From Candidatus Kuenenia stuttgartensis (lineage in GTDB: Bacteria > Planctomycetota > Planctomycetia > Pirellulales > UBA1268), in assembly GCA_945877135.1 (NCBI GenBank), contig CAMCQY010000002.1, positions 22,796 through 86,795 on the forward strand: a stretch of DNA of 64,000 nucleotides, in the 5' to 3' direction. Of this stretch, positions 522 to 63,185 are shown piece by piece (within the stretch, counting starts at the first letter, position 1; every line of letters begins with the position of its first letter). The notes below the pieces were generated by a model. That model searched no databases and had not been told where the DNA came from. It saw only the letters and a program-made list of their open reading frames with translations. Position numbers and translations under genes: made by a program.

Positions 522-1490
522 TTACCGGCGGGGGTGGAACTTTTCGTGCACGCTTCGCAGGCGGCTGGCATCGACGTGGGTATACCGCTGCGTCGTCGCG
601 ATGCTCGCGTGGCCGAGCATTTCCTGCACGTGCCGCAGATCGACGCCGCCGGCCACCAGGTGGGTGGCGAAGCTGTGGCGGAGCGTGTGGGGGCCGATGT
701 CGGGCGGCACCCCCGCCTTGTCGGCGTGAAGCCGAACGATCTCCCAGATCCGCATGCGTGAGAGGCGGTTGCCCCGCGTGGAGAGGATCACCCAGGCGGG
801 GCTGGAGCCTGCACGGGCGGCGATGGCTTGCCGCGGACCTTCGATCCATGTCCGCAGGGCCGCGATCGCCCGTCTGCCGAGTGGCACGACCCGCTCCTTG
901 TCCCCCTTGCCGCGACAGGTGCAGAAGCTTTCCCCCAGATGCACATCAGTCAGCCGCAGCGCCGACACCTCCGATGCCCGGCAACCGGTGGCATAGAGCA
1001 ATTCCAACAGGGCCTTGTCCCTCCGGCCGGACGGAGTGACTGCGTCCGGGCTCTCGAGCAGACGGTCCACCTGATCGGGCGAGAGCGTGCCGGGGATGAC
1101 GTCGCCACGGCGACCGGCCGTGAGCAGTTCGGCGGGGCTCTCCCGCACGACTCCCTCGAGTTGGAGAAACGCATAGAAGGTGCGAAGTGTCGCCGCCTGG
1201 CGGGCCACGCTGGCCCGCGCCAGCCCGCGTCTGTCGAGGGCCGCCAAGTAGTCGCCCAGTTCCCGCACGGAGAGCCGGACTGGATTGCCGTCTGCCAACC
1301 AGGCGGAGAAATCCCGCAGATCGCGGCGGTAGGCCTCCTGGGTATTTTCGGAGAGTGCCCGTTCGTGGCGGACATATTCCAGAAACCGCCGCACGAGGAT
1401 GCCGGTCGATCCCCCCTCCTCTGTCGCAGCGGGGCCGGTGTCGAGAATGACCCGGCGGACTCGGCGGCCAGGCTTCTCGTTCGCGGTCAT
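522..1490 (-). CDS. Tyrosine site-specific recombinase, XerC/XerD family
   Basis: C-terminal catalytic region LRHSFATHLVAGGVDLRHVQEMLGHASIATTQRYTHV (R-H-R-Y type). N-terminal core-binding domain FLEYVRHERALSENTQEAYRRDL. Start placed at ATG 1490 (MTANEKPG), 25 nt after the metH stop. The ORF-track start at 1589 would overlap metH. Confidence 0.85.
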   Translation of the reverse strand: MTANEKPGRRVRRVILDTGPAATEEGGSTGILVRRFLEYVRHERALSENTQEAYRRDLRDFSAWLADGNPVRLSVRELGDYLAALDRRGLARASVARQAATLRTFYAFLQLEGVVRESPAELLTAGRRGDVIPGTLSPDQVDRLLESPDAVTPSGRRDKALLELLYATGCRASEVSALRLTDVHLGESFCTCRGKGDKERVVPLGRRAIAALRTWIEGPRQAIAARAGSSPAWVILSTRGNRLSRMRIWEIVRLHADKAGVPPDIGPHTLRHSFATHLVAGGVDLRHVQEMLGHASIATTQRYTHVDASRLRSVHEKFHPRR

Positions 1491-5214: not shown

Positions 5215-5497
5215 CAGAGGTCTTTTGGCTCGGTGAAAACGAAATGGAATCTGGGCGTGGGCCGCGGGCTGGTCATGGAATCTGTCATGATCGGCAGATC
5301 CTGCCCAACCGAATGATACTTTGCCCTTGGATGATAGGCGATTGGGCGATTGGGGCGCGTTGCGCGGGGATGGGTGGACGTCAGCCCCGCCGACCTTGAC
5401 GCGGTGGGGGCCGCTTCCGCCGGCGAACTGCGGCGTTCAAGGGCCCCGCCGCGTGGTGACGATGCTCAGCCTGGGGTTCTGGTGAGGCGTGGGATGA

Positions 5498-16230: not shown

Positions 16231-17307
16231 ATGCAGATCATGAAACTTGACACGCTCGCCCAATCGATCGGTGAATGGCTTCGAGGCACCGGGCCGGAGT
16301 CGGATATCGTCATGAGCAGCAGGGTGCGGCTGGCCCGCAACCTGCCGCAGTATCCGTTCGTGAGCCGGGCATCCGAGCAGGACCGCGCCGACATCGAGCG
16401 GTTTCTGCGGGAACGCATCGCGATGTCTTCGGCAGGCCCGGGACTCGAATCGATCGACGTGGGCGGGCTCGAGGAAATCGACCGCCAGTTTCTCGTCGAA
16501 CGGCAGTTGATCAGTCGGGAGCACGCCGATGCCCAGGGGGCCCGGAGTGTGGCGATCGACAAGCTCGAACAGGTCAGCCTGATGATCAACGAAGAGGACC
16601 ATCTCCGCATCCAGTGCATCCACAGCGGCCTCGACCTCCGCGGCGTCTGGGAGCAGATCAAGGTGGTCGATGAACAGATCGAGCAGTTCGTGCCGTATGC
16701 CTTTCATCCACGGTTTGGCTATCTCACCGCCTGCCCGACCAATGTGGGCACCGGGATCCGCGTGAGCGTGATGCTCCACCTGCCGGCGCTGGTGATCACC
16801 CGGCAGATTGACAAGGTGTTTCGCAGCCTCCACAAGATCTCGCTGGCGGTCCGCGGCCTCTATGGCGAGGGCTCACAGGCGATGGGCGACTTCTACCAGA
16901 TCTCCAACCAGACCACGCTCGGCAAGTCGGAGGAAGAACTGGTGGAGCAGGTCGGAGACGTGGTGCCGGTGTTGATCGATTACGAGCGGCGAGCCCGGGA
17001 ATTTCTCGTCCGCGAGACGGAACAAAACGTGCACGACCAGGTGAGCCGCGCCTATGGCATTCTGCGGACCGCTCAGACGATCAGCGCCGAGGAGACGATG
17101 CAGCTGCTGTCGCGGGTGAGGATGGGCGTGCTCCTCGGGCTGATCGGCGACGTGAAGATCGCCGACATCAACTCGCTCCTCGTCCGCACCCAGCCCGCCC
17201 ACCTGCAGAAGCTGCGGGGCATCGAACTCGATACGAAAGACCGCAACATCGAGCGGGCCCGTTACCTGCGGCAGCACTTCGAGGCCGGCGGGCAGAACGT
17301 CAACTGA
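16231..17307 (+). CDS. mcsB: Protein arginine kinase (ATP:guanido phosphotransferase)
   Basis: Phosphagen-kinase catalytic motifs EEDHLRIQ and CPTNVGTGIRVSVMLHLPAL. 358 aa. Confidence 0.9.
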   Translation: MQIMKLDTLAQSIGEWLRGTGPESDIVMSSRVRLARNLPQYPFVSRASEQDRADIERFLRERIAMSSAGPGLESIDVGGLEEIDRQFLVERQLISREHADAQGARSVAIDKLEQVSLMINEEDHLRIQCIHSGLDLRGVWEQIKVVDEQIEQFVPYAFHPRFGYLTACPTNVGTGIRVSVMLHLPALVITRQIDKVFRSLHKISLAVRGLYGEGSQAMGDFYQISNQTTLGKSEEELVEQVGDVVPVLIDYERRAREFLVRETEQNVHDQVSRAYGILRTAQTISAEETMQLLSRVRMGVLLGLIGDVKIADINSLLVRTQPAHLQKLRGIELDTKDRNIERARYLRQHFEAGGQNVN

Positions 17308-17350
17308 CTATCCTCTATTTGACACGTGCGCCTTGCGAGTTGGCCGCGGT

Positions 17351-17485
17351 GAGGGGCTGGCCGGACCCTGTCGCCGGACGTTCGCTACGGGCATCCTGCC
17401 CTTCGCTCACTCGATGCTGACTGCGCTCTGGCATCCTGCCTGCGCTTGTCAGCAACGCCGGCTCTCAGGGCCCGGCCAGCCCCTC
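17351..17485. repeat. Structured intergenic repeat, family B, copy 2
   Basis: 20-bp closing stem GAGGGGCTGGCCGGACCCTG / CAGGGCCCGGCCAGCCCCTC (1 mismatch) around the same core as copies 1 and 3. Internal hairpins are GGGCA-TCC-TGCCC, TGCTGAC/GTCAGCA and GGCA-TCC-TGCC. Confidence 0.85.
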
Positions 17486-17550
17486 ACGGATTCTGCTACC
17501 GAGCTGCGCGTGGCATCCTGCCATGCCGATCAACGAGGGCGGTCTCCGTC

Positions 17551-17644
17551 CCCATCCAAGCCCGCAGCGCAAGCAAGGGAATACGGATAGCCTTACGGGA
17601 TAGGCAGCGGATTTCCCTCGCTCGCGCGTCGGGCTTGCATGGGA
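17551..17644. repeat. Family A hairpin repeat, copy 3
   Basis: Arms CCCATCCAAGCCCGCAGCGCAAGCAAGGGAAT (17551-17582) and TTTCCCTCGCTCGCGCGTCGGGCTTGCATGGGA (17612-17644). Confidence 0.85.
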
Positions 17645-17745
17645 GTGTGACGAAGCAGTCTTGCGGGGGCCCGCCCGGCGCGTCATCCCTGCGAGTGACC
17701 CCCGCGAGTCAGCCCTGCGACATCCAGCCAGCCATCATGCCGGGA

Positions 17746-18258
17746 TTATGCCGGGCCGGAGAGCGTGCGGCGGAGCGGGGCTACCACTGGCGGCGGCACG
17801 AATTTGAGCAGCGCGTCGTCGTCGGCCAGCGGCGTGATCTGTTTGAGCAGCGACGATGAAATGTGCGAATACTGGGCGTCGGCCATCAGGAATACCGTCT
17901 CAACCGCCGGATCGAGCTTCCGATTGGCCAGCGTCATGGTGAACTCCGCATCGATGTCGGTCAGCGACCGCACGCCGCGCAGGAGCACGTGGGCCCCCTG
18001 CTCGCGCACGAAAGCCACTGACAGTCCGCTGAACAGTTCGACGCGGACGTTGGGCAGGCCGGCAACGGATTCGCGGACGAGTTGCACCCGTTCGGCCAGC
18101 GAGAAGATGGGCTGCTTCTCCGGGTTGATGCCAACGCCGACGACGATCGCATCGAAGATTCGGCTGGCCCGCTCGATGACGTCGAGATGACCGAGGGTGA
18201 TCGGGTCGAAAGATCCGGTGTAGACGGCGGTGCGGCGGTGGGGGGCGTGCTGGACCAC
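17746..18258 (-). CDS. coaD: Phosphopantetheine adenylyltransferase
   Basis: AVYTGSFDPITLGHLDVIERA nucleotidyltransferase motif. Size of ~160-170 aa fits. Confidence 0.92.
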   Translation of the reverse strand: MVQHAPHRRTAVYTGSFDPITLGHLDVIERASRIFDAIVVGVGINPEKQPIFSLAERVQLVRESVAGLPNVRVELFSGLSVAFVREQGAHVLLRGVRSLTDIDAEFTMTLANRKLDPAVETVFLMADAQYSHISSSLLKQITPLADDDALLKFVPPPVVAPLRRTLSGPA

Positions 18259-21382: not shown

Positions 21383-22810
21383 ATGGCGAATGAGTCTCCA
21401 GCGGCCGGAACGGGTTCTGCAGCCCCGCAGCCGGCGGCCTCGCTGTCGCCGGCGGAGAGGTCGCGGCTGGCCCAGTGCTTCCAGCATGCTACGCAGAGCG
21501 TCGCGAAAAACATCGATTATGCGATTGAGATGTTCTCCGTCTGCGTGGCGGGCGATCCGGCCAATGCCGTCTACCTCCAGAATCTGCTGGGAGCCTTGCG
21601 GATCAAGCACGGCGGCAAGAAGGGGGGCGGTTTGGCGGCACTCTGGTCGGCGGGGGGGCGGGGAGGCCTCAGAAAGCTGATCGCGGCTGGAAAATGTCGA
21701 GAAGCGATTGCCCAGGGTGTGGAGATCATCAAGGGCAATCCCGCCGAGTCTGGCAGCCTGCTCCTCATGGCGGAAGCCTGCGGGAAACTCGGATTCGGAG
21801 ACACGCAGCGGGTCTATCTCAAAGCGGCGCTCGACGCCGCGCCTGCGGACGTGGAAGTGAACCGCAAGTGTGCCGATTTCCTCTCCTCGTATGGCGAATA
21901 CGACCAGGCCATCGCCTGTTGGATGCGTATCGGCAATGCGAAGGGGATGTCCGATGAGGCCCAGCGGCAGGTCGCGAAGCTCCAAGTTGACAAAACCATC
22001 GCCGCCGGTGAGGGCCTGACCGGCAGGAAGCCGGCTGCTGCCGCCGGCCAGAAGGTGGAAGCAGCCGCCGAAGGAGAGAGTTCCCAGGACCGTCGCTCCG
22101 CCCTCTTGGCAGCCATCACGAAGAATCCGGCCACCATCGAGCCGTATCTCGAACTGGCTGATCTCGTGGAGCGGGACGGCACGGTTGAAGAGGCCCAGAA
22201 AGTGCTTTCTAAGGCGCTTGCCGCCTCGGGGAACGACCTCAAGGTTCGCGAGCATATCGAAGACCGTCAACTCCGCTGGACGCGTCACCGGCTGCAGTTG
22301 GCGGAGAAACGCCTGGCAGAGGAGGACACTCCCGGCAATCGCCAGGCCGTCGAGCAACTCCGTGCCGCACAGCTGAAGTATGAGATCGAGGTCTACTCCG
22401 CCCGCACCGTCCGCTATCCGGAAAACATCAGTTGGAAATACGAGTTGGCCATGCGGCTGAAGGCTGCCGGGAATCATACGGAGGCCATCCGCCAGTTTCA
22501 GGACGTGCTGCAGGACGCTCGCCGCAAGGGGGCGGTGGCGCTCGAACTTGGCGAATGTTTCCAGAAGATTCGGCAGTATCCTTTGGCAATGCGGAATTAC
22601 CAGACAGCCGTTGACTCGTTGACCGACCGAGAACAGGACCTCCGCAAACGGGCCCTCTACCGAGCGGGCGTGCTGGCGGCCGGTCTGGATGACATCGACT
22701 CTGCCCGGAAATACCTCTCCGCGCTCGCCGAACTCGACTTTGGCTACCGCGATGTGGCCCAACGTCTGGACAAGCTGACGCCGGCAAAGGATAAAGGGGC
22801 CGGAAACTAA
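21383..22810 (+). CDS. TPR-repeat protein
   Basis: Multiple TPR-like helical repeats (for example AIRQFQDVLQDARRKGAVALELGECFQKIRQYPLAMRNYQTA). Start placed at ATG 21383 (MANESP). Confidence 0.7.
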   Translation: MANESPAAGTGSAAPQPAASLSPAERSRLAQCFQHATQSVAKNIDYAIEMFSVCVAGDPANAVYLQNLLGALRIKHGGKKGGGLAALWSAGGRGGLRKLIAAGKCREAIAQGVEIIKGNPAESGSLLLMAEACGKLGFGDTQRVYLKAALDAAPADVEVNRKCADFLSSYGEYDQAIACWMRIGNAKGMSDEAQRQVAKLQVDKTIAAGEGLTGRKPAAAAGQKVEAAAEGESSQDRRSALLAAITKNPATIEPYLELADLVERDGTVEEAQKVLSKALAASGNDLKVREHIEDRQLRWTRHRLQLAEKRLAEEDTPGNRQAVEQLRAAQLKYEIEVYSARTVRYPENISWKYELAMRLKAAGNHTEAIRQFQDVLQDARRKGAVALELGECFQKIRQYPLAMRNYQTAVDSLTDREQDLRKRALYRAGVLAAGLDDIDSARKYLSALAELDFGYRDVAQRLDKLTPAKDKGAGN

Positions 22811-42598: not shown

Positions 42599-42672
42599 GG
42601 GGGTGTAGCTCAGTTGGTTAGAGCGCCAGCCTGTCACGTTGGAGGCCGCGGGTTCGAGTCCCGTCACCCTCG
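42599..42672 (+). tRNA. tRNA-Asp (anticodon GTC)
   Basis: Folded by hand as a cloverleaf: acceptor GGGGGTG/CACCCTC, D-arm GCTC-AGTTGGTTA-GAGC, anticodon arm CCAGC-CTGTCAC-GTTGG, T-arm GCGGG-TTCGAGT-CCCGT, discriminator G. CCA is not encoded. Confidence 0.95.
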
Positions 42673-58071: not shown

Positions 58072-59760
58072 ATGAACCTGACGGAATCCCAGAAGACGAT
58101 CGGCAAGGAAAATTTCACCGACGTCGTGAATATCACGCGGCGGGATTTCCTCACCGGCACGCTCGCGGCTGGCCTCGCCACCGGTGCGGGCCTGGGATCG
58201 ATCTACTTCGGCTACGGCAAGAGCGTCGGCGACCCGCTCCGTGTGGGCTTTATTGGCACGGGCGACGAGGGTAGCGTGCTCCTGGGGGCCCACAATCCAG
58301 ACTATCTCAACGTTGTCGCAATCGCCGACATCCGTCCCTACAACGTCTTCCGCGCGTTCCACGGCGACGCCTCCAGCCCCACGGCCATGACGGCCCGCCC
58401 GGGACTGATGGCGAAGTACAAGTGGTCGAGCGAGGACGAGGCCCGCAAGAAGGTGAAGGTCTACGGTGCCTACGAAGACCTGCTGGCCGACGACGACATC
58501 GAAGCCGTGGTCATTTCTCTGCCCCTCCACCTGCACGCAGAGGCCGCGATCAAGGCGATGCGGGCCGGCAAGCACGTGCTCACCGAGAAGCTGATGGGCC
58601 ACTCGATCCACGAGTGCAAGGAAATGAGCCGCGTGTCGCGGGAGACGGGCAAGATTCTCGCCACTGGCCACCAGCGGCATTACAGCGTGCTCTACGACAA
58701 CGCCGTTCACACCATCGGCAAGGCCCGTCTGCTCGGCGATCTGCATGCGATCCGGGCCCAGTGGCACCGTGGGAATCTGCCCGGCAACGACAGTTGGAAG
58801 CCGCCGATGCCGGACGACGCGTCGCTCGCCAAGAAACTGGCCGGCTGGAAGAAGGATCTCGACTCGGCAAAGCCCGGCGACATCGCTGGCCTGACGAAGC
58901 GGATCGCGCAGTTGGAGGCCCAGATCTCCGACACGGTTGTCGATGCCACGAAGTATGGCTACGCGCCCATGACGCTTGGCGATGGGAGCACCCGGACGCC
59001 GATGGAAGAACTCATCCGCTGGCGGCTCTGGAACCGCACCGGCGGCGGCCTGATGGCGGAGCTCGGCAGCCACCAACTCGACGCGGCTGGCATCTTCGTT
59101 TCGGCGATGCACGGCGAGGGGAAGAAGGTGAAGCCTCTCACGGTGACGGCGGTCGGCAATCGCAGCATCTTCCCGGCCGATCGCGAGGTCGATGACCACG
59201 TCTACTGCATGTACGAGTATCCGGCCCCTGGCTACGAAGAGGACAAGAACAAGAAGGTGGTCGTCACCTACTCGTCAATCAACGGCAACGGTTTCGGCGA
59301 TTACGGCGAGGTGGTGATGGGCACGAAGGGCACGCTCGTGCTCGAACGCGAGCAGGACGTCATGCTCTATAAGGGTTCGGCGAAGGACACCCGCGTGACG
59401 GTCGCCAAGGGCAAGGATGGGGCACCGACGCTCGACACCACCGAGAGCGGTGGTGGTGGCGGCGGGTCGGCGGCTAGCGGCAAGCCGGGTGGCGATGGGG
59501 CCCCGCCCTCCCGCGGCTACACGGAGGAGATGGAGCACTGGGCGTGGTGCATCCGCAACCCGTCGCCGGAGAACCAGCCGCGGTGCAAGCCCGAGGTGGC
59601 GATCGCCGACGCGGTGATCGCGCTGGTGAGCAACATCGCCCTGGCGAACCCCGAGACGCAGGCTCGCATTCACTTTAAGCCGGAGTGGTTTGATATCGCG
59701 AGCGACGAGACCCCTGAGGGCGTGAAGCCCGATACGGGCCGCGACAACTACAAGATCTGA
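58072..59760 (+). CDS. Tat-exported Gfo/Idh/MocA-family oxidoreductase
   Basis: Twin-arginine motif RRDFLTGTLAAGLATGAG. Rossmann motif VGFIGTGDEG, and EKLM with the catalytic Lys. Contains a Gly-rich insert SGGGGGGSAASGKPGG. Confidence 0.85.
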   Translation: MNLTESQKTIGKENFTDVVNITRRDFLTGTLAAGLATGAGLGSIYFGYGKSVGDPLRVGFIGTGDEGSVLLGAHNPDYLNVVAIADIRPYNVFRAFHGDASSPTAMTARPGLMAKYKWSSEDEARKKVKVYGAYEDLLADDDIEAVVISLPLHLHAEAAIKAMRAGKHVLTEKLMGHSIHECKEMSRVSRETGKILATGHQRHYSVLYDNAVHTIGKARLLGDLHAIRAQWHRGNLPGNDSWKPPMPDDASLAKKLAGWKKDLDSAKPGDIAGLTKRIAQLEAQISDTVVDATKYGYAPMTLGDGSTRTPMEELIRWRLWNRTGGGLMAELGSHQLDAAGIFVSAMHGEGKKVKPLTVTAVGNRSIFPADREVDDHVYCMYEYPAPGYEEDKNKKVVVTYSSINGNGFGDYGEVVMGTKGTLVLEREQDVMLYKGSAKDTRVTVAKGKDGAPTLDTTESGGGGGGSAASGKPGGDGAPPSRGYTEEMEHWAWCIRNPSPENQPRCKPEVAIADAVIALVSNIALANPETQARIHFKPEWFDIASDETPEGVKPDTGRDNYKI

Positions 59761-59766
59761 ACGGGT

Positions 59767-59893
59767 GGGTAGCCCGTGCCCCATCGCTGGACGTTCGCTT
59801 CGGCATCCTGCCTTCGCTCGCTCGATGCTGACTGCGCGTCGCCATCCTACCTGCGCTGGTCAGCAACGCCGGCTCTTCGGGCACGGGCAACCC
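59767..59893. repeat. Structured intergenic repeat, family B, copy 3
   Basis: 15-bp closing stem GGGTAGCCCGTGCCC / GGGCACGGGCAACCC (1 mismatch) around the conserved core. Internal hairpins are GGCA-TCC-TGCC and GCTGAC/GTCAGC. The third hairpin is degenerate (GCCA-TCC-TACC). Confidence 0.85.
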
Positions 59894-59898
59894 GCCCT

Positions 59899-59990
59899 CC
59901 CATTCAAGCCCGAAGCGCAAGCGAGAGGAATCCGCGGCCCAGCCCGTCAGGCCACCCGCATACCCTTGCCTGCGCTGCGGACTTGGATGG
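59899..59990. repeat. Family A hairpin repeat, copy 6 (diverged)
   Basis: Arms CCCATTCAAGCCCGAAGCGCAAGCGAGAGGAAT (59899-59931) and ACCCTTGCCTGCGCTGCGGACTTGGATGG (59962-59990). Confidence 0.8.
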
Positions 59991-60080: not shown

Positions 60081-62966
60081 TCACTCCGCCCAGGCTGACA
60101 CCGGCACGCAGCTGCAGAACAGATTGCGGTCGCCGTGGACGTTGTCCACGCGGGCGACCGACGGCCAGTATTTGCCACGCTTGAGTGACGCAACCGGAAA
60201 CACGGCAATCTCACGGGCATAGGGCCGGTCCCAATCCTCTGCCGAGATCGCGGCGGCGGTATGCGGAGCGTGCTTGAGCGGGTTGTTGTCCTGGGGCCAG
60301 ATCCCCTCCTCCACCTGCCGAATCTCCTCGCGGATGGCGATCATCGCCGCGATGAACCGGTCGAGTTCGGCCAAGGGCTCGCTCTCGGTCGGCTCCACCA
60401 TCAGCGTGCCTGGCACCGGGAAACTCAGCGTCGGGGCATGAAAGCCGTAGTCGACCAGCCGCTTGGCGACGTCTTCGGCCGTGACGCCGCTGGACTCTTT
60501 CAGCGGACGCAGGTCGAGGATGCACTCATGGGCCACGCGACCGTTCACGCTGGAGTAGAGCGTCGGGTAGTGGCCGTGGAGCCTGGTGCTGACGTAGTTG
60601 GCGGCGAGGATCGCGGCCTCGGTGGCGTGCTTGAGCCCTTCAGGACCCATCATACGGCAGTACATCCAGCTGATCGGCAGCACCGCGGCATTGCCCAGCG
60701 GCGCGGCCGAGACAGCGCCCACGTCGCCGACGGGCAGGCCTCCGGTGGCATGGCCCGGCAGGTACGGCACCAGATCGGCGACCACGCAGACCGGGCCGAC
60801 GCCGGGGCCGCCGCCGCCGTGCGGGATGCAGAACGTCTTGTGGAGGTTCAGGTGGCTGACATCGCCGCCGAACGCGCCCGGGGCCGTGACGCCGACCAAC
60901 GCGTTCATGTTGGCGCCATCGACATACACGCGGCCACCGTGGCGGTGGACGATCTCACAGAGTTCCCTGATCTGTGTTTCGAAGACGCCGTGGGTGCTCG
61001 GGTAGGTGATCATCACGGCTGACAGCCGGTCGCTGTACTGCTCGCACTTGGCCTGAAGTTCCGTCAAATCGACGTTGCCGTGTGCGTCGCAGCCGGTGAC
61101 GACGACCTCCATGCCGGCCATCTGGGCGCTGGCGGGATTCGTGCCGTGGGCAGAGGATGGAATCAGGCAGATCGTACGATGGCCCTGACCGCGGGCCCGC
61201 TGCCAGGCCTGGATCACGAGCAGGCCGGCATACTCCCCCTGGCTGCCAGCATTGGGCTGCAGGCTGATGCCGGCATAGCCGGTGGCCTCGCAGAGCCATT
61301 CGCGGAGCTGCCGTTCCAGGATCCAATAGCCTTCCAACTGGTCGGCAGGCGCGAAGGGGTGGAGGTTCGCGAACTCAGCCCAGGTGATCGGGATCATCTC
61401 ACTGGTGGCATTGAGCTTCATCGTGCAGCTGCCCAGCGGGATCATGCTGCGGTCGAGCGCCAGATCCTTGTCGCTCAGGCTACGGATGTAGCGGAGCATT
61501 GAAGTTTCGCTGTGGTGTGTATTGAACACCGGGTGCGTCAGGAAGTCGGTGGTCCGCCGCAGGCCGGCCGGGATCAGCGGCTCGATGCCCTGCTCGTAGG
61601 CGGCAAACTCCGGGAGCGGCTTCCCCGGCGCCGCAAAGACCTGCAGGAGCCGCACGAGATCGTCGCGGGTGGTGGTCTCGTCGAGTGAGATCGAGAGCGT
61701 CGTCGCATCGAGCGTTCGCAGGTTCATGCCGAGTTCGCGGGCCCGCGCTGCCATTCCCGCGGTCTGGTCGCCTGTCTCGAGGCAGAGCGTGTCGAACGCG
61801 TGGGCATTCCTGATCCGCACGCCGAGTCGCTTGAGCGAGTCAGCGAGCACCGCCGTGTAGGCCGCAATGCGTTGGGCGATCCGGGTGAGGCCGGCTGGAC
61901 CGTGGTAGACGGCGAACATGCTCGCCACCACCGCGGGCAGCACCTGGGCCGTGCAGATGTTGGAGGTGGCCTTTTCGCGGCGGATGTGCTGTTCGCGGGT
62001 CTGCAGGGCGAGCCGATAGGCGGGCCGTCCTTCCGCATCGATGCTCACGCCGACGAGGCGGCCCGGCAACGACCGTTTGAAGGCGTCGCGACAGGCGAAA
62101 AATGCGGCGTGTGGGCCACCGCAGCCCATCGGCATGCCAAACCGCTGGGTGGAGCCGACCACGATGTCGGCGGCCCATTCTCCTGGGGGCACGAGCAGGG
62201 TGAGGGCAAGCAGATCGGTTGCCACGCAGAGTACGGCCTGCTTGGCGTGGACCCTCTCCGCGAGGCCTCGCCAATCGTCCACGGTGCCGTCGGTCGCGGG
62301 ATATTGGACGAGTACACCGAAGCAGTCGTGCCGGCTGAGCAGATCGTCGATGCCGCCGACCCGGACCTCGATACCGAGCGGTCGGGCCCGGGTCTGGAGG
62401 ACTTCCAGCGTCTGCGGGTGGCAGCGGTCATCAGCCAGAAAGATCTGGCTGGCGCTGGCGGAGGTCCGGCGTGCCAGCGTCATCGCCTCGGCCGCGGCGG
62501 TAGCCTCGTCGAGCATCGATGCATTCGCGATCGGCATGCCGGTCAACTCGCAGACCATCGTCTGAAAATTGACGAGGGCCTCCATGCGACCCTGGCTGAT
62601 CTCGGCCTGATAAGGTGTGTAGGCGGTATACCAGGCCGGATTTTCGAGAATGTTCCGCAGGATCACACCGGGCGTGTGGGCGCCGTGGTAGCCCTGGCCG
62701 ATGAAGCTCTTCAGGAGCCGGTTCCGGGAAGCGATGGCCTTCAGTTCCGCGAGAGCGTTGGCCTCGGAGAGCGGCGACGGCAGTTTCATCGCGTCACGGC
62801 GGACGATACTGGCTGGCACGATTCCTTCGACGAGCGACTGGCATGAGGCCTCGCCAATCGCATCGAGCATGTGCCGTTCGTCGGCGGCATCGAGTCCGAT
62901 GTGCCGGGCCCGGAATTCGGTGGCGTTTTCCAGGAATGCGAGTGGGATCGTCGACGAGGCAGACAT
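60081..62966 (-). CDS. gcvP: Glycine dehydrogenase (decarboxylating), single-chain P protein
   Basis: 961-aa fused alpha/beta form with [16 protein letters not shown] and [18 protein letters not shown] (PLP lysine). Start placed at ATG 62966 (MSASSTIP), with GGAG 8 nt upstream. Confidence 0.95.
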
Positions 62967-63024
62967 GACAGGGCTCCAAGGTCGGTGGTCTTGGCCAATG
63001 GAGCGACGGGCCTCCACGGGAACC

Positions 63025-63185
63025 CTGTTGTCCTTGGACCTGAGAGATTCGCCGTAGGCCGCGCCCACGGTTTGCCCCTTCGGTGGACTCTCAGCCCCGC
63101 GGGGCCTGAGTCGCTCTCCAACAGTGCGGTAGTCAGTACTTTTGCCTGAGCGTTCGGCCTTCGGCGGTCTTGCGACTCTCTCCTG
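63025..63185 (-). promoter_or_regulatory. Tandem glycine riboswitch (two aptamers) in the gcvP leader
   Basis: Read on the minus strand. Aptamer 1 is GUCAG-GAGAG-(GUC GCAA GAC)-CGCCGAAGG...CUCAGGCAAAAGUA-CUGAC. Aptamer 2 is CUGUU-GGAGAG-...-CACCGAAGGGGCAA-...-CUCAGGUCCAAGGAC-AACAG. These match the conserved GGAGAG / ACCGAAGGGGCAA / CUCAGG...AAGGAC cores. Confidence 0.85.

Follow-up and report, generated by a model that had tools for sequence, protein, structure and literature searches.

The 64,000-nt window analysed here (positions 22,796 to 86,795 of contig CAMCQY010000002.1, assembly GCA_945877135.1, deposited as Candidatus Kuenenia stuttgartensis and placed in the Pirellulales, phylum Planctomycetota) carries three full-length copies of a branched palindromic repeat element of about 150 nt. 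The copy under study, copy 2, occupies 17346-17492 on the plus strand (153.6 bits against a covariance model) and lies between the convergent genes mcsB and coaD, 39 nt past the mcsB stop codon (17307). Copy 1 is found at 19-167 (+; 148.6 bits, covariance-model positions 1-146) and copy 3 at 59759-59903 (+; 119.9 bits), where its start overlaps the last bases of a GFO/IDH/MocA oxidoreductase gene (stop 59760) that is convergent with gcvP; the genes around copies 2 and 3 were identified by Pfam. A covariance model of 68 copies, run with filters off, detects exactly these three, all on the plus strand, and the next, unrelated match in the window scores 15 bits. The three copies that a preliminary description of this DNA had placed at 26-158, 17351-17485 and 59767-59893 are thus real, and its counts of complementary positions in their closing stems (18/18, 19/20 and 14/15) are correct. 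In the alignment, the mean column identity of the three is 82%. As for the core that they had been said to share, copies 1 and 2 contain the 16-mer TCGCCGGACGTTCGCT exactly and copy 3 contains it with a single mismatch, and GTCAGCAACGCCGGCTCT is present in copies 2 and 3 and absent from copy 1.

The basal helix of copy 2 (P0/P1) is formed by GAGGGGCTGGCCGGACCCTG at 17351-17370 and CAGGGCCCGGCCAGCCCCTC at 17466-17485. On the plus strand it has 19 of 20 positions paired, and the lone A.C reads as G.U on the minus strand. Its 3' arm is followed by the tail CACGGATTCTGC, which is conserved in many copies of the family. Helix P2 (GCCGG, 17373-17377, paired with CCGGC, 17458-17462) closes a three-way junction, from which two arms emerge: the mini-hairpin H1 (GGGCA-TCC-TGCCC, 17389-17401), flanked by TTCGCT boxes, and the arm P3 (17412-17457), in which CGATGCTGAC pairs with GTCAGCAACG. 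P3 encloses GCGC boxes and a second mini-hairpin, H2 (GGCA-TCC-TGCC, 17430-17440), which is flanked by TGCGCT boxes and is a direct repeat of the H1 unit. Copy 1 has its basal arms at 26-43 and 141-158, H1 (AGGCC-CTCCA-GGCCT) at 61-75 and H2 (GCCA-TCC-TGGC) at 104-114; in copy 3 the basal helix starts at 59767, H1 is at 59802-59812, and H2 (GCCATCCTACC, 59841-59851) is degraded. Folding of each window copy is far above that of dinucleotide shuffles on both strands (z from -4.8 to -10.4), with z of -8.8 on the plus and -9.8 on the minus strand for copy 2 and -5.1 for copy 3; copy 1 folds at -87.3 kcal/mol on the plus and -89.0 on the minus strand. A solo mini-hairpin, TGGCA-TCC-TGCCA at 17511-17523 (+), stands 26 nt past the basal helix of copy 2, has a TGCGC box on its 5' side and contains an exact GGCATCCTGCC at 17512-17522; as had been proposed, it is one unit of the family.

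The architecture of the family was derived from an alignment of 68 full copies (A2), from which the covariance model (R1) was built, and extends over about 146 model positions, with a single branch point and 44 pairs. RNAalifold and independent pair counts agree on a basal helix P1 of 17 pairs, which is about 20 bp overall; at its foot there is a 2x2 TC/TC internal loop in some copies and a perfect extension in others. The short GCCGG/CCGGC helix P2 leads into the three-way junction, whose branches are H1 and the 9-pair helix P3 with H2 inside it; an alignment of 109 copies also supports the basal helix, the GCCGG/CCGGC helix and the junction. A single unit of about 27 nt is directly repeated in H1 and H2; it reads, in order, (T/G)CGCT box, stem of 4-5 bp, loop bearing TCC, stem and T(T/G)CGCT box. 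The termini fall into two classes. In class I, the 2x2 TC/TC internal loop at the foot of P1 is followed by at least two covarying pairs (T-A versus C-G), with conserved tails ..CGGTTC and TCACGGAT(T)..; in class II, there is a perfect extension, GGCTC/GAGCC, with flanks CAACTCGCCCAACCCGGC and GCCTCC. Conservation continues for only about 14 nt beyond the element. Variants with internal insertions occur at four of the loci fetched for comparison (L020, L095, L075 and L111).

The covariation of the internal stems that had been noticed on three copies is borne out on 68. Standard pairs fill 94.0% of the cells, against 79.9% with shuffled partners and 35-47% with partners slid along the alignment, and compensated double changes amount to 361 cells, against about 100 and 45-71, respectively. 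Compensated changes are seen at 34 of the 44 pairs (19.0 with shuffled and 18-26 with slid partners), and none of 500 shuffles equalled the observed values. They affect 16 of the 17 pairs of P1 and all nine of P3; P2 is paired in 97.4% of its cells and mostly invariant, so that it offers weak covariation evidence. In the mini-hairpins, one pair of the H1 stem is CG in 30 copies, GC in 25 and AU in 11, and one of the H2 stem is GC in 33 and CG in 31. Whereas G-C gives way to C-G or A-T in the stems, TCC is retained in the loops of at least 90% of copies, with an invariant middle C in H2. On the minus strand this triplet reads GGA, and it is preserved whether the loop has 3, 4 or 5 nt. Selection on a folded single strand, RNA or DNA as originally suggested, is therefore real and strong, judged by pairing and compensation against these controls. 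The closing stems, described at first as unrelated in sequence, are variants of a single consensus, GGGGCTGCCCGTGCCCCG, found across more than 100 copies. They are homologous parts of the element, and the idea that a mobile core had been inserted into pre-existing terminators is therefore rejected.

The fold has a polarity. Among non-standard pairs read on the plus strand there are 130 A.C or C.A against 33 G.U, with A.C exceeding G.U at 23 positions and the reverse at five. Read on the minus strand, these A.C pairs turn into G.U/G.T wobbles, and tandem G.A replaces the TC/TC loop. Folding energies are about -86 to -94 kcal/mol for either strand; of 99 copies, 93 under RNA parameters and 96 under DNA parameters fold more stably on the minus strand. 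It is thus on the strand with the GGA loops, to which the preliminary description had drawn attention, that the fold is protected. The bias of A.C over G.U is 21:8 in tandem contexts that would put the plus version of the element into the mRNA, 14:1 in those that would put the minus version there, 30:6 in convergent and 22:5 in divergent contexts; since it is the same in every gene context, the polarity belongs to the element and not to host transcription. It also runs opposite to the usual C-to-T pressure on the G-rich strand, which points to selection, not mutation, as its probable origin. In 35 of 48 loci the G-rich strand is the one that carries the plus version (p = 0.002), and this link with GC skew persists when 200 nt are masked on each side of a copy and gene strand is controlled for (t = 3.7); orientation with respect to the gene strand itself shows no link (25 versus 22).

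Genes in all loci were called by a self-trained codon-usage caller, and the 68 classified copies divide into 22 in convergent contexts, 19 in tandem contexts with the plus version in the mRNA, 13 in tandem contexts with the minus version and 14 in divergent contexts. The sole positional habit is proximity to an upstream stop codon: for upstream genes on the same strand, the median distance from the stop to the start of the element is about 29 nt. It could be argued from this that the element is a cis-acting structure on mRNAs, beneficial to the host in either orientation, which would act as a block to exonucleases running 3' to 5', as a terminator that needs no U-tract or as a determinant of processing sites, and would owe its conservation to this role. 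Barrier and processing roles of this type have been ascribed to the palindromic extragenic repeats known as REP, the bacterial interspersed mosaic elements (BIME) and the enterobacterial repetitive intergenic consensus (ERIC) of enterobacteria. The placement of two copies between cistrons of an ABC-transporter operon (L115), the high stability of both strands, the retention of structure at 78% sequence identity and the occurrence of the element in two species 3' of the same oxidoreductase gene (that upstream of copy 3 and its ortholog in L040) are all consistent with it. However, one and the same strand of the element is favoured by the wobble asymmetry, regardless of which an mRNA would carry, and 14 of the 68 classified copies lie between divergent gene starts. 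Neither a conserved promoter nor a conserved terminator is found at the element; there is no terminator-like site with a U-tract in 17250-17800, and the conserved tails lack a T run. The near-invariant TCC/GGA loops and CGCT boxes would be superfluous in a simple barrier, and the element may be present or absent among relatives whose McsB proteins are 96-98% identical. A barrier function as the reason for the element is thus doubtful.

The loops themselves had suggested two functions in transcripts. The first, a display of anti-Shine-Dalgarno-like TCC loops, gains nothing from the orientation data, as mRNAs would carry TCC in 19 cases and GGA in 13, and the asymmetry is independent of the transcription of neighbouring genes. 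The second is that the GGA loops form a putative binding module for CsrA/RsmA, whose copies, in the hundreds, would titrate this protein or put flanking genes under its control. The minus-strand RNA does present two CAGGAUG hairpins about 40 nt apart with GGA in the loop; GGCAGGAUGCC occurs twice per element on the better-folding strand, and the GGA, in loops of 3, 4 or 5 nt, persists through the covariation of the stems. CAGGAUG is the repeat consensus of CsrB. Moreover, GGA/TCC loops are found in 14% of other intergenic hairpins, including a neighbouring three-hairpin module, versus 5% in coding DNA, and CsrA is widespread in Planctomycetota (PMC13443453). Yet the GGA version is not preferred in the mRNA sense, either in the element (13 GGA versus 19 TCC) or in stand-alone hairpins (13 versus 15), so that a decoy role draws no support from orientation, and no conserved promoter or terminator would make the element a gene of its own. 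Rfam returns no match to CsrB, RsmY, RsmZ or TwoAYGGAY even at E<=10, and csrA was not seen in about 1 Mb of fetched loci, a sample too small to be informative. Taken together, a CsrA-binding module is very unlikely.

Comparison of orthologous sites indicates that the element comes and goes. At the mcsB-coaD site it is present in about a dozen of 80 orthologous loci from metagenome contigs, in one or two copies and in either orientation. In close relatives such as L121 and L123 (McsB 96% identical), the gap between the two genes is about 40 nt and contains no repeat, and in L120 and L122 a deletion remnant is left, in which ...GTCGCCGG is joined to CGGATTCTGCTAC and the stretch between two CGG triplets is gone. 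L149 and the near-identical L158 differ in their mcsB-coaD spacers, where the 3' part of the element (GCGTCCGGCGAGATGGCATGGGCAGCCCCGAGCCTGCGTCACCC...) has undergone tandem duplication, and the repeat is therefore a site of local rearrangement. A presence/absence polymorphism of this sort, together with a length of about 150 nt, inverted termini, many copies and intergenic placement, is also what would be expected of an ordinary MITE (a miniature transposable element with inverted repeats) derived from a DDE-type insertion sequence, with the basal arms as terminal inverted repeats. Target-site duplications were sought, and none was found: the direct repeats shared by the two sides of a copy do not exceed in length those shared by flanks taken from different copies. 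In addition, the supposed terminal repeats vary with compensation from copy to copy, unlike a conserved transposase binding site, the whole interior is structured and conserved, and no related insertion sequence was seen among the fetched loci. An origin as an ordinary MITE is hence most improbable, in agreement with the preliminary description.

When two copies are adjacent, their arrangement is almost fixed. Out of 15 cases, 14 are a plus copy followed by a minus copy, one is a tandem and none is a minus copy followed by a plus copy, with gaps of 0-95 nt. Such inverted doublets are a habit of REPIN and BIME (PMC3116915). Some of them are bracketed by an extra inverted repeat, CAACTCGCCCAACCCGGC. 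The genes enclosed by inverted copies (L084, L113, L009) are ordinary ones, with no transposases among them. An extra inverted repeat of about 19 nt, TCAACTCGCCCAACCCGGC ... GCCGGGTTGGGCGAGTTGA, brackets many class II copies as well as inverted doublets (L027, L053, L057, L075, L102, L111, L131, L159 and others), which suggests a larger composite unit of about 350-400 nt.

The distribution of the element was surveyed with a pattern scan (GGACGTTCGCT, 8-25 bases, TTCGCTC) on one genome per species, which returned at least 115 loci, about three quarters of them true copies. Among the fetched loci, strong matches to R1 amount to at least 109 copies in 59 species-level genomes. Nearly all carriers are metagenome-assembled genomes (MAGs) of Planctomycetota, many of lake origin, under the labels Pirellulales, Planctomycetia or Planctomycetaceae, and the window itself matches a metagenome contig. 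Many of the fetched sequences end inside the element, which would be expected of a repeat at which short-read assemblies break. The same scan gave 10 chance matches on viral contigs, none of which was confirmed by the covariance model. The mean identity of copies is 78% within a genome versus 74% between genomes, and the nearest relative comes from the same genome in 19 of 76 copies; these identities point to an old family with modest lineage-specific clustering. Rfam 15 gives no family at the gathering score and, at E<=10, just meaningless matches of about 20 bits, as anticipated from the lack of resemblance to any described RNA family. A literature search found no paper describing this repeat in Planctomycetes. 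It is, in sum, a previously undescribed repeat family, specific to mostly freshwater, Pirellulales-type Planctomycetota. Typical copies also occur, at 65-75% G+C, in MAGs bearing other labels: 'Chitinophagaceae' (L001/L073), 'Candidatus Kuenenia' (L016, L019, L020, L023 and others), 'Chromatiaceae' (L055) and 'Actinomycetota' (L068). The labels or the binning of those MAGs are probably wrong.

The interpretation proposed here, to which a probability of about 0.5 is given, is that the element is a non-coding interspersed palindromic repeat of the REP/BIME/ERIC kind that follows a single-strand DNA logic, and not a regulatory RNA gene. A repeat acting at the DNA level is preferred because of its gain and loss among close relatives, its indifference to gene orientation, the absence of target-site duplications, the fixed polarity of its doublets, its fixed folding strand and its link with GC skew. 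The element would be propagated and kept intact as folded single-stranded DNA of one strand, namely the minus strand of the window, with its GGA loops, G.T wobbles and tandem G.A pairs. This process would be tied to replication and depend on a structure-specific enzyme for single-stranded DNA that acts in trans, for example a Y1 HUH (RAYT/IS200-like) transposase. Copies would insert into permissive intergenic DNA in either orientation, join as inverted doublets and eventually degenerate by deletion; effects on mRNA, such as that of a 3' barrier hairpin, would be a by-product. There is precedent for this in the phylum. Rhodopirellula baltica is reported to have many tyrosine-transposase genes with their own flanking repeats (PMC3733652), and a Y1 class present mainly in Planctomycetes is flanked by high-copy 'atypical secondary structures' (PMC6006769). 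Y1 HUH transposases act on REP/REPIN and on IS200/IS605 ends as single strands (PMC3116915, PMC6006769).

Several observations weigh against this interpretation. A search by motif regular expression, tblastn and phmmer, with IS608 TnpA as query, detected no Y1/HUH or other transposase beside the copies or in about 1 Mb of fetched loci, a sample in which a single-copy gene could be missed. The element lacks the canonical REP foot GT[AG]G, is more branched than a REP and has four times its length. Copies in one genome are only about 78% identical and yet keep 94% pairing, which looks more like long-term constraint on resident copies than like recent bursts. The window and L119 share their flanks, whereas their elements differ by about seven compensated pair changes, where far fewer than one (<<1) would be expected, by estimate, from independent changes at about 20% divergence; such a difference requires either selection in place or replacement by another copy of the family. 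Finally, the better-folding strand is mostly on the C-rich strand. The rule for IS608 is that the active strand lies on the lagging-strand template, that is, opposite to the skew of the element; GC skew over 8 kb is, moreover, no more than a proxy for the direction of replication. The skew link may reflect survival rather than insertion: if copies whose folding strand is less often single-stranded survived preferentially, their placement on the C-rich strand would be explained.

A broader version of the single-strand reading has also been considered, in which the element and the other hairpin modules with GGA/TCC loops are substrates of one hypothetical factor of Planctomycetota that reads the loop GGA on one strand, be it a new single-strand DNA recombinase (e.g. 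one of the poorly known 'class 3' Y1 HUH proteins) or CsrA with hundreds of genomic decoy sites. As a whole it is unlikely. If true, these repeats would constitute a genome-wide, strand-aware system and not junk.

Other repeats accompany the element in the window. A second family lies 3' of copies 2 and 3 (17554-17640 and 59902-59990), as well as in the 3' flank of the L020 copy, and consists of a hairpin of about 90 nt, CAAGCCCG(A/C)AGCGCAAGCGAGGGAA ... TTCCCT(C/T)GC..GCGC..CGGGCTTG, with a fold of -54 to -64 kcal/mol. A third is found 3' of copy 1 (173-250) and in the 3' flank of the L050 copy, and comprises three hairpins with GGA(G) loops on the plus strand (GGCCCGGAGGGCC, GGGCGGAGGCCC and TCGGCAGGATGCCGA). 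Compensated changes are seen in L050 (GCGGGC/GCCCGC versus GCCGAC/GTCGGC). The last of its stems is the hairpin at 226-240, previously listed as a free-standing copy of the mini-hairpin, which belongs to this different repeat. Closest to copy 1 and the three-hairpin module is a gene (522-1490, minus strand) for a XerC/XerD-type tyrosine recombinase with Phage_integrase and SAM-like N-terminal domains. A further mini-hairpin, GGACAGGCTTCAGCCTGTCC, with a TTCA/TGAA loop, stands beside many class II copies (L013, L029, L108, L075, L107); such loops number 12 in intergenic and one in coding DNA. The hairpin in the metH leader (5293-5305, minus strand), also attributed at first to the family, reads GGCAG-GAT-CTGCC on the strand of the gene and was dropped from it; it lies about 75 nt upstream of the metH start, where Rfam detects no cobalamin riboswitch. 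The remaining RNA features of the window are ordinary: a glycine riboswitch aptamer (63018-63131, minus strand) directly upstream of gcvP (60081-62966, minus strand), and one tRNA gene (42599-42672, plus strand).

The family adds a well-defined and widespread repeat, documented by alignment, structure and covariance model, to a phylum for which hardly any interspersed repeats have been described, and accounts for recurrent contig breaks and variable intergenic regions in MAGs of freshwater Planctomycetes. It could serve as a lineage marker, for example for MAGs labelled 'Kuenenia', 'Chitinophagaceae' or 'Chromatiaceae'. With its branched core, invariant loop triplets and demonstrable strand polarity, it is more elaborate than most such repeats. 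It is also a good test case for what keeps REP/ERIC-type palindromes folded, a single-strand DNA enzyme or a function as RNA, because fixed strand polarity, independence from host transcription and a link with GC skew coincide in it.

Among known systems, the CsrB/RsmY/RsmZ decoys share with the element the GGA (CAGGAUG) hairpins on the better-folding strand. They differ in that the element has just two sites per unit, lacks its own promoter and terminator, is randomly oriented to transcription, has no Rfam match and occurs in many dispersed copies. The attC sites of integrons resemble it as imperfect palindromes in which structure prevails over sequence, one strand folds and sets the polarity, and orientation is biased with respect to replication, whereas its termini do not fit RYYYAAC/GTTRRRY and it is surrounded by housekeeping genes instead of cassette arrays. 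Transposase-less derivatives of IS200/IS605 have two near-identical small direct hairpins on one strand, adjoining short boxes, no duplications and a single-strand logic, as the element does. In the latter, however, the hairpins are nested in a long conserved palindrome, no tnpA/tnpB partner was seen, and orientation with respect to GC skew is opposite to the IS608 rule.

ERIC sequences, or intergenic repeat units (IRU), of enterobacteria are imperfect palindromes of about 127 bp, placed between genes or cistrons in either orientation in many species, with insertion variants, no known transposase and no duplications. The element is similar in size, in its long imperfect palindrome, in its placement, in its presence in many species, in its variants with internal insertions and in having neither duplications nor a known transposase. 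It bears no sequence relationship to them, belongs to another phylum, and has in addition a branched core, invariant loop triplets, strand asymmetry and the GC-skew link. The closest kind is that of REP/BIME/REPIN sequences with their RAYT (Y1 HUH) transposases, along with the related TIR repeats and their TIRYT genes. Like them, the element is extragenic and present in many copies, with compensated structure, no target-site duplication, inverted doublets of fixed polarity, mosaics with other hairpin modules and strand-specific folding, and its phylum is reported to have such transposases and flanking repeats (PMC3116915, PMC3733652, PMC6006769). A REP is a simple hairpin of 20-40 nt, while the element is about 150 nt with a three-way junction and only its mini-hairpin units of about 27 nt are REP-sized; these two inner hairpins are direct repeats, not inverted as in REP doublets. 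Instead of the GT[AG]G foot, its flanks read ..GGTTC followed by GGGG on the plus strand and ..CCGTGA or ..GCGA followed by GGGG on the minus strand, with no GTAG or GTGG. In contrast to REP, it has no linked transposase gene in the fetched loci, and its copies within a genome are far more diverged. It is not filed as a REP because the defining features of that class, the short hairpin and the GT[AG]G foot, fail; in its manner of working, the element is nonetheless like the REP/BIME/REPIN class.

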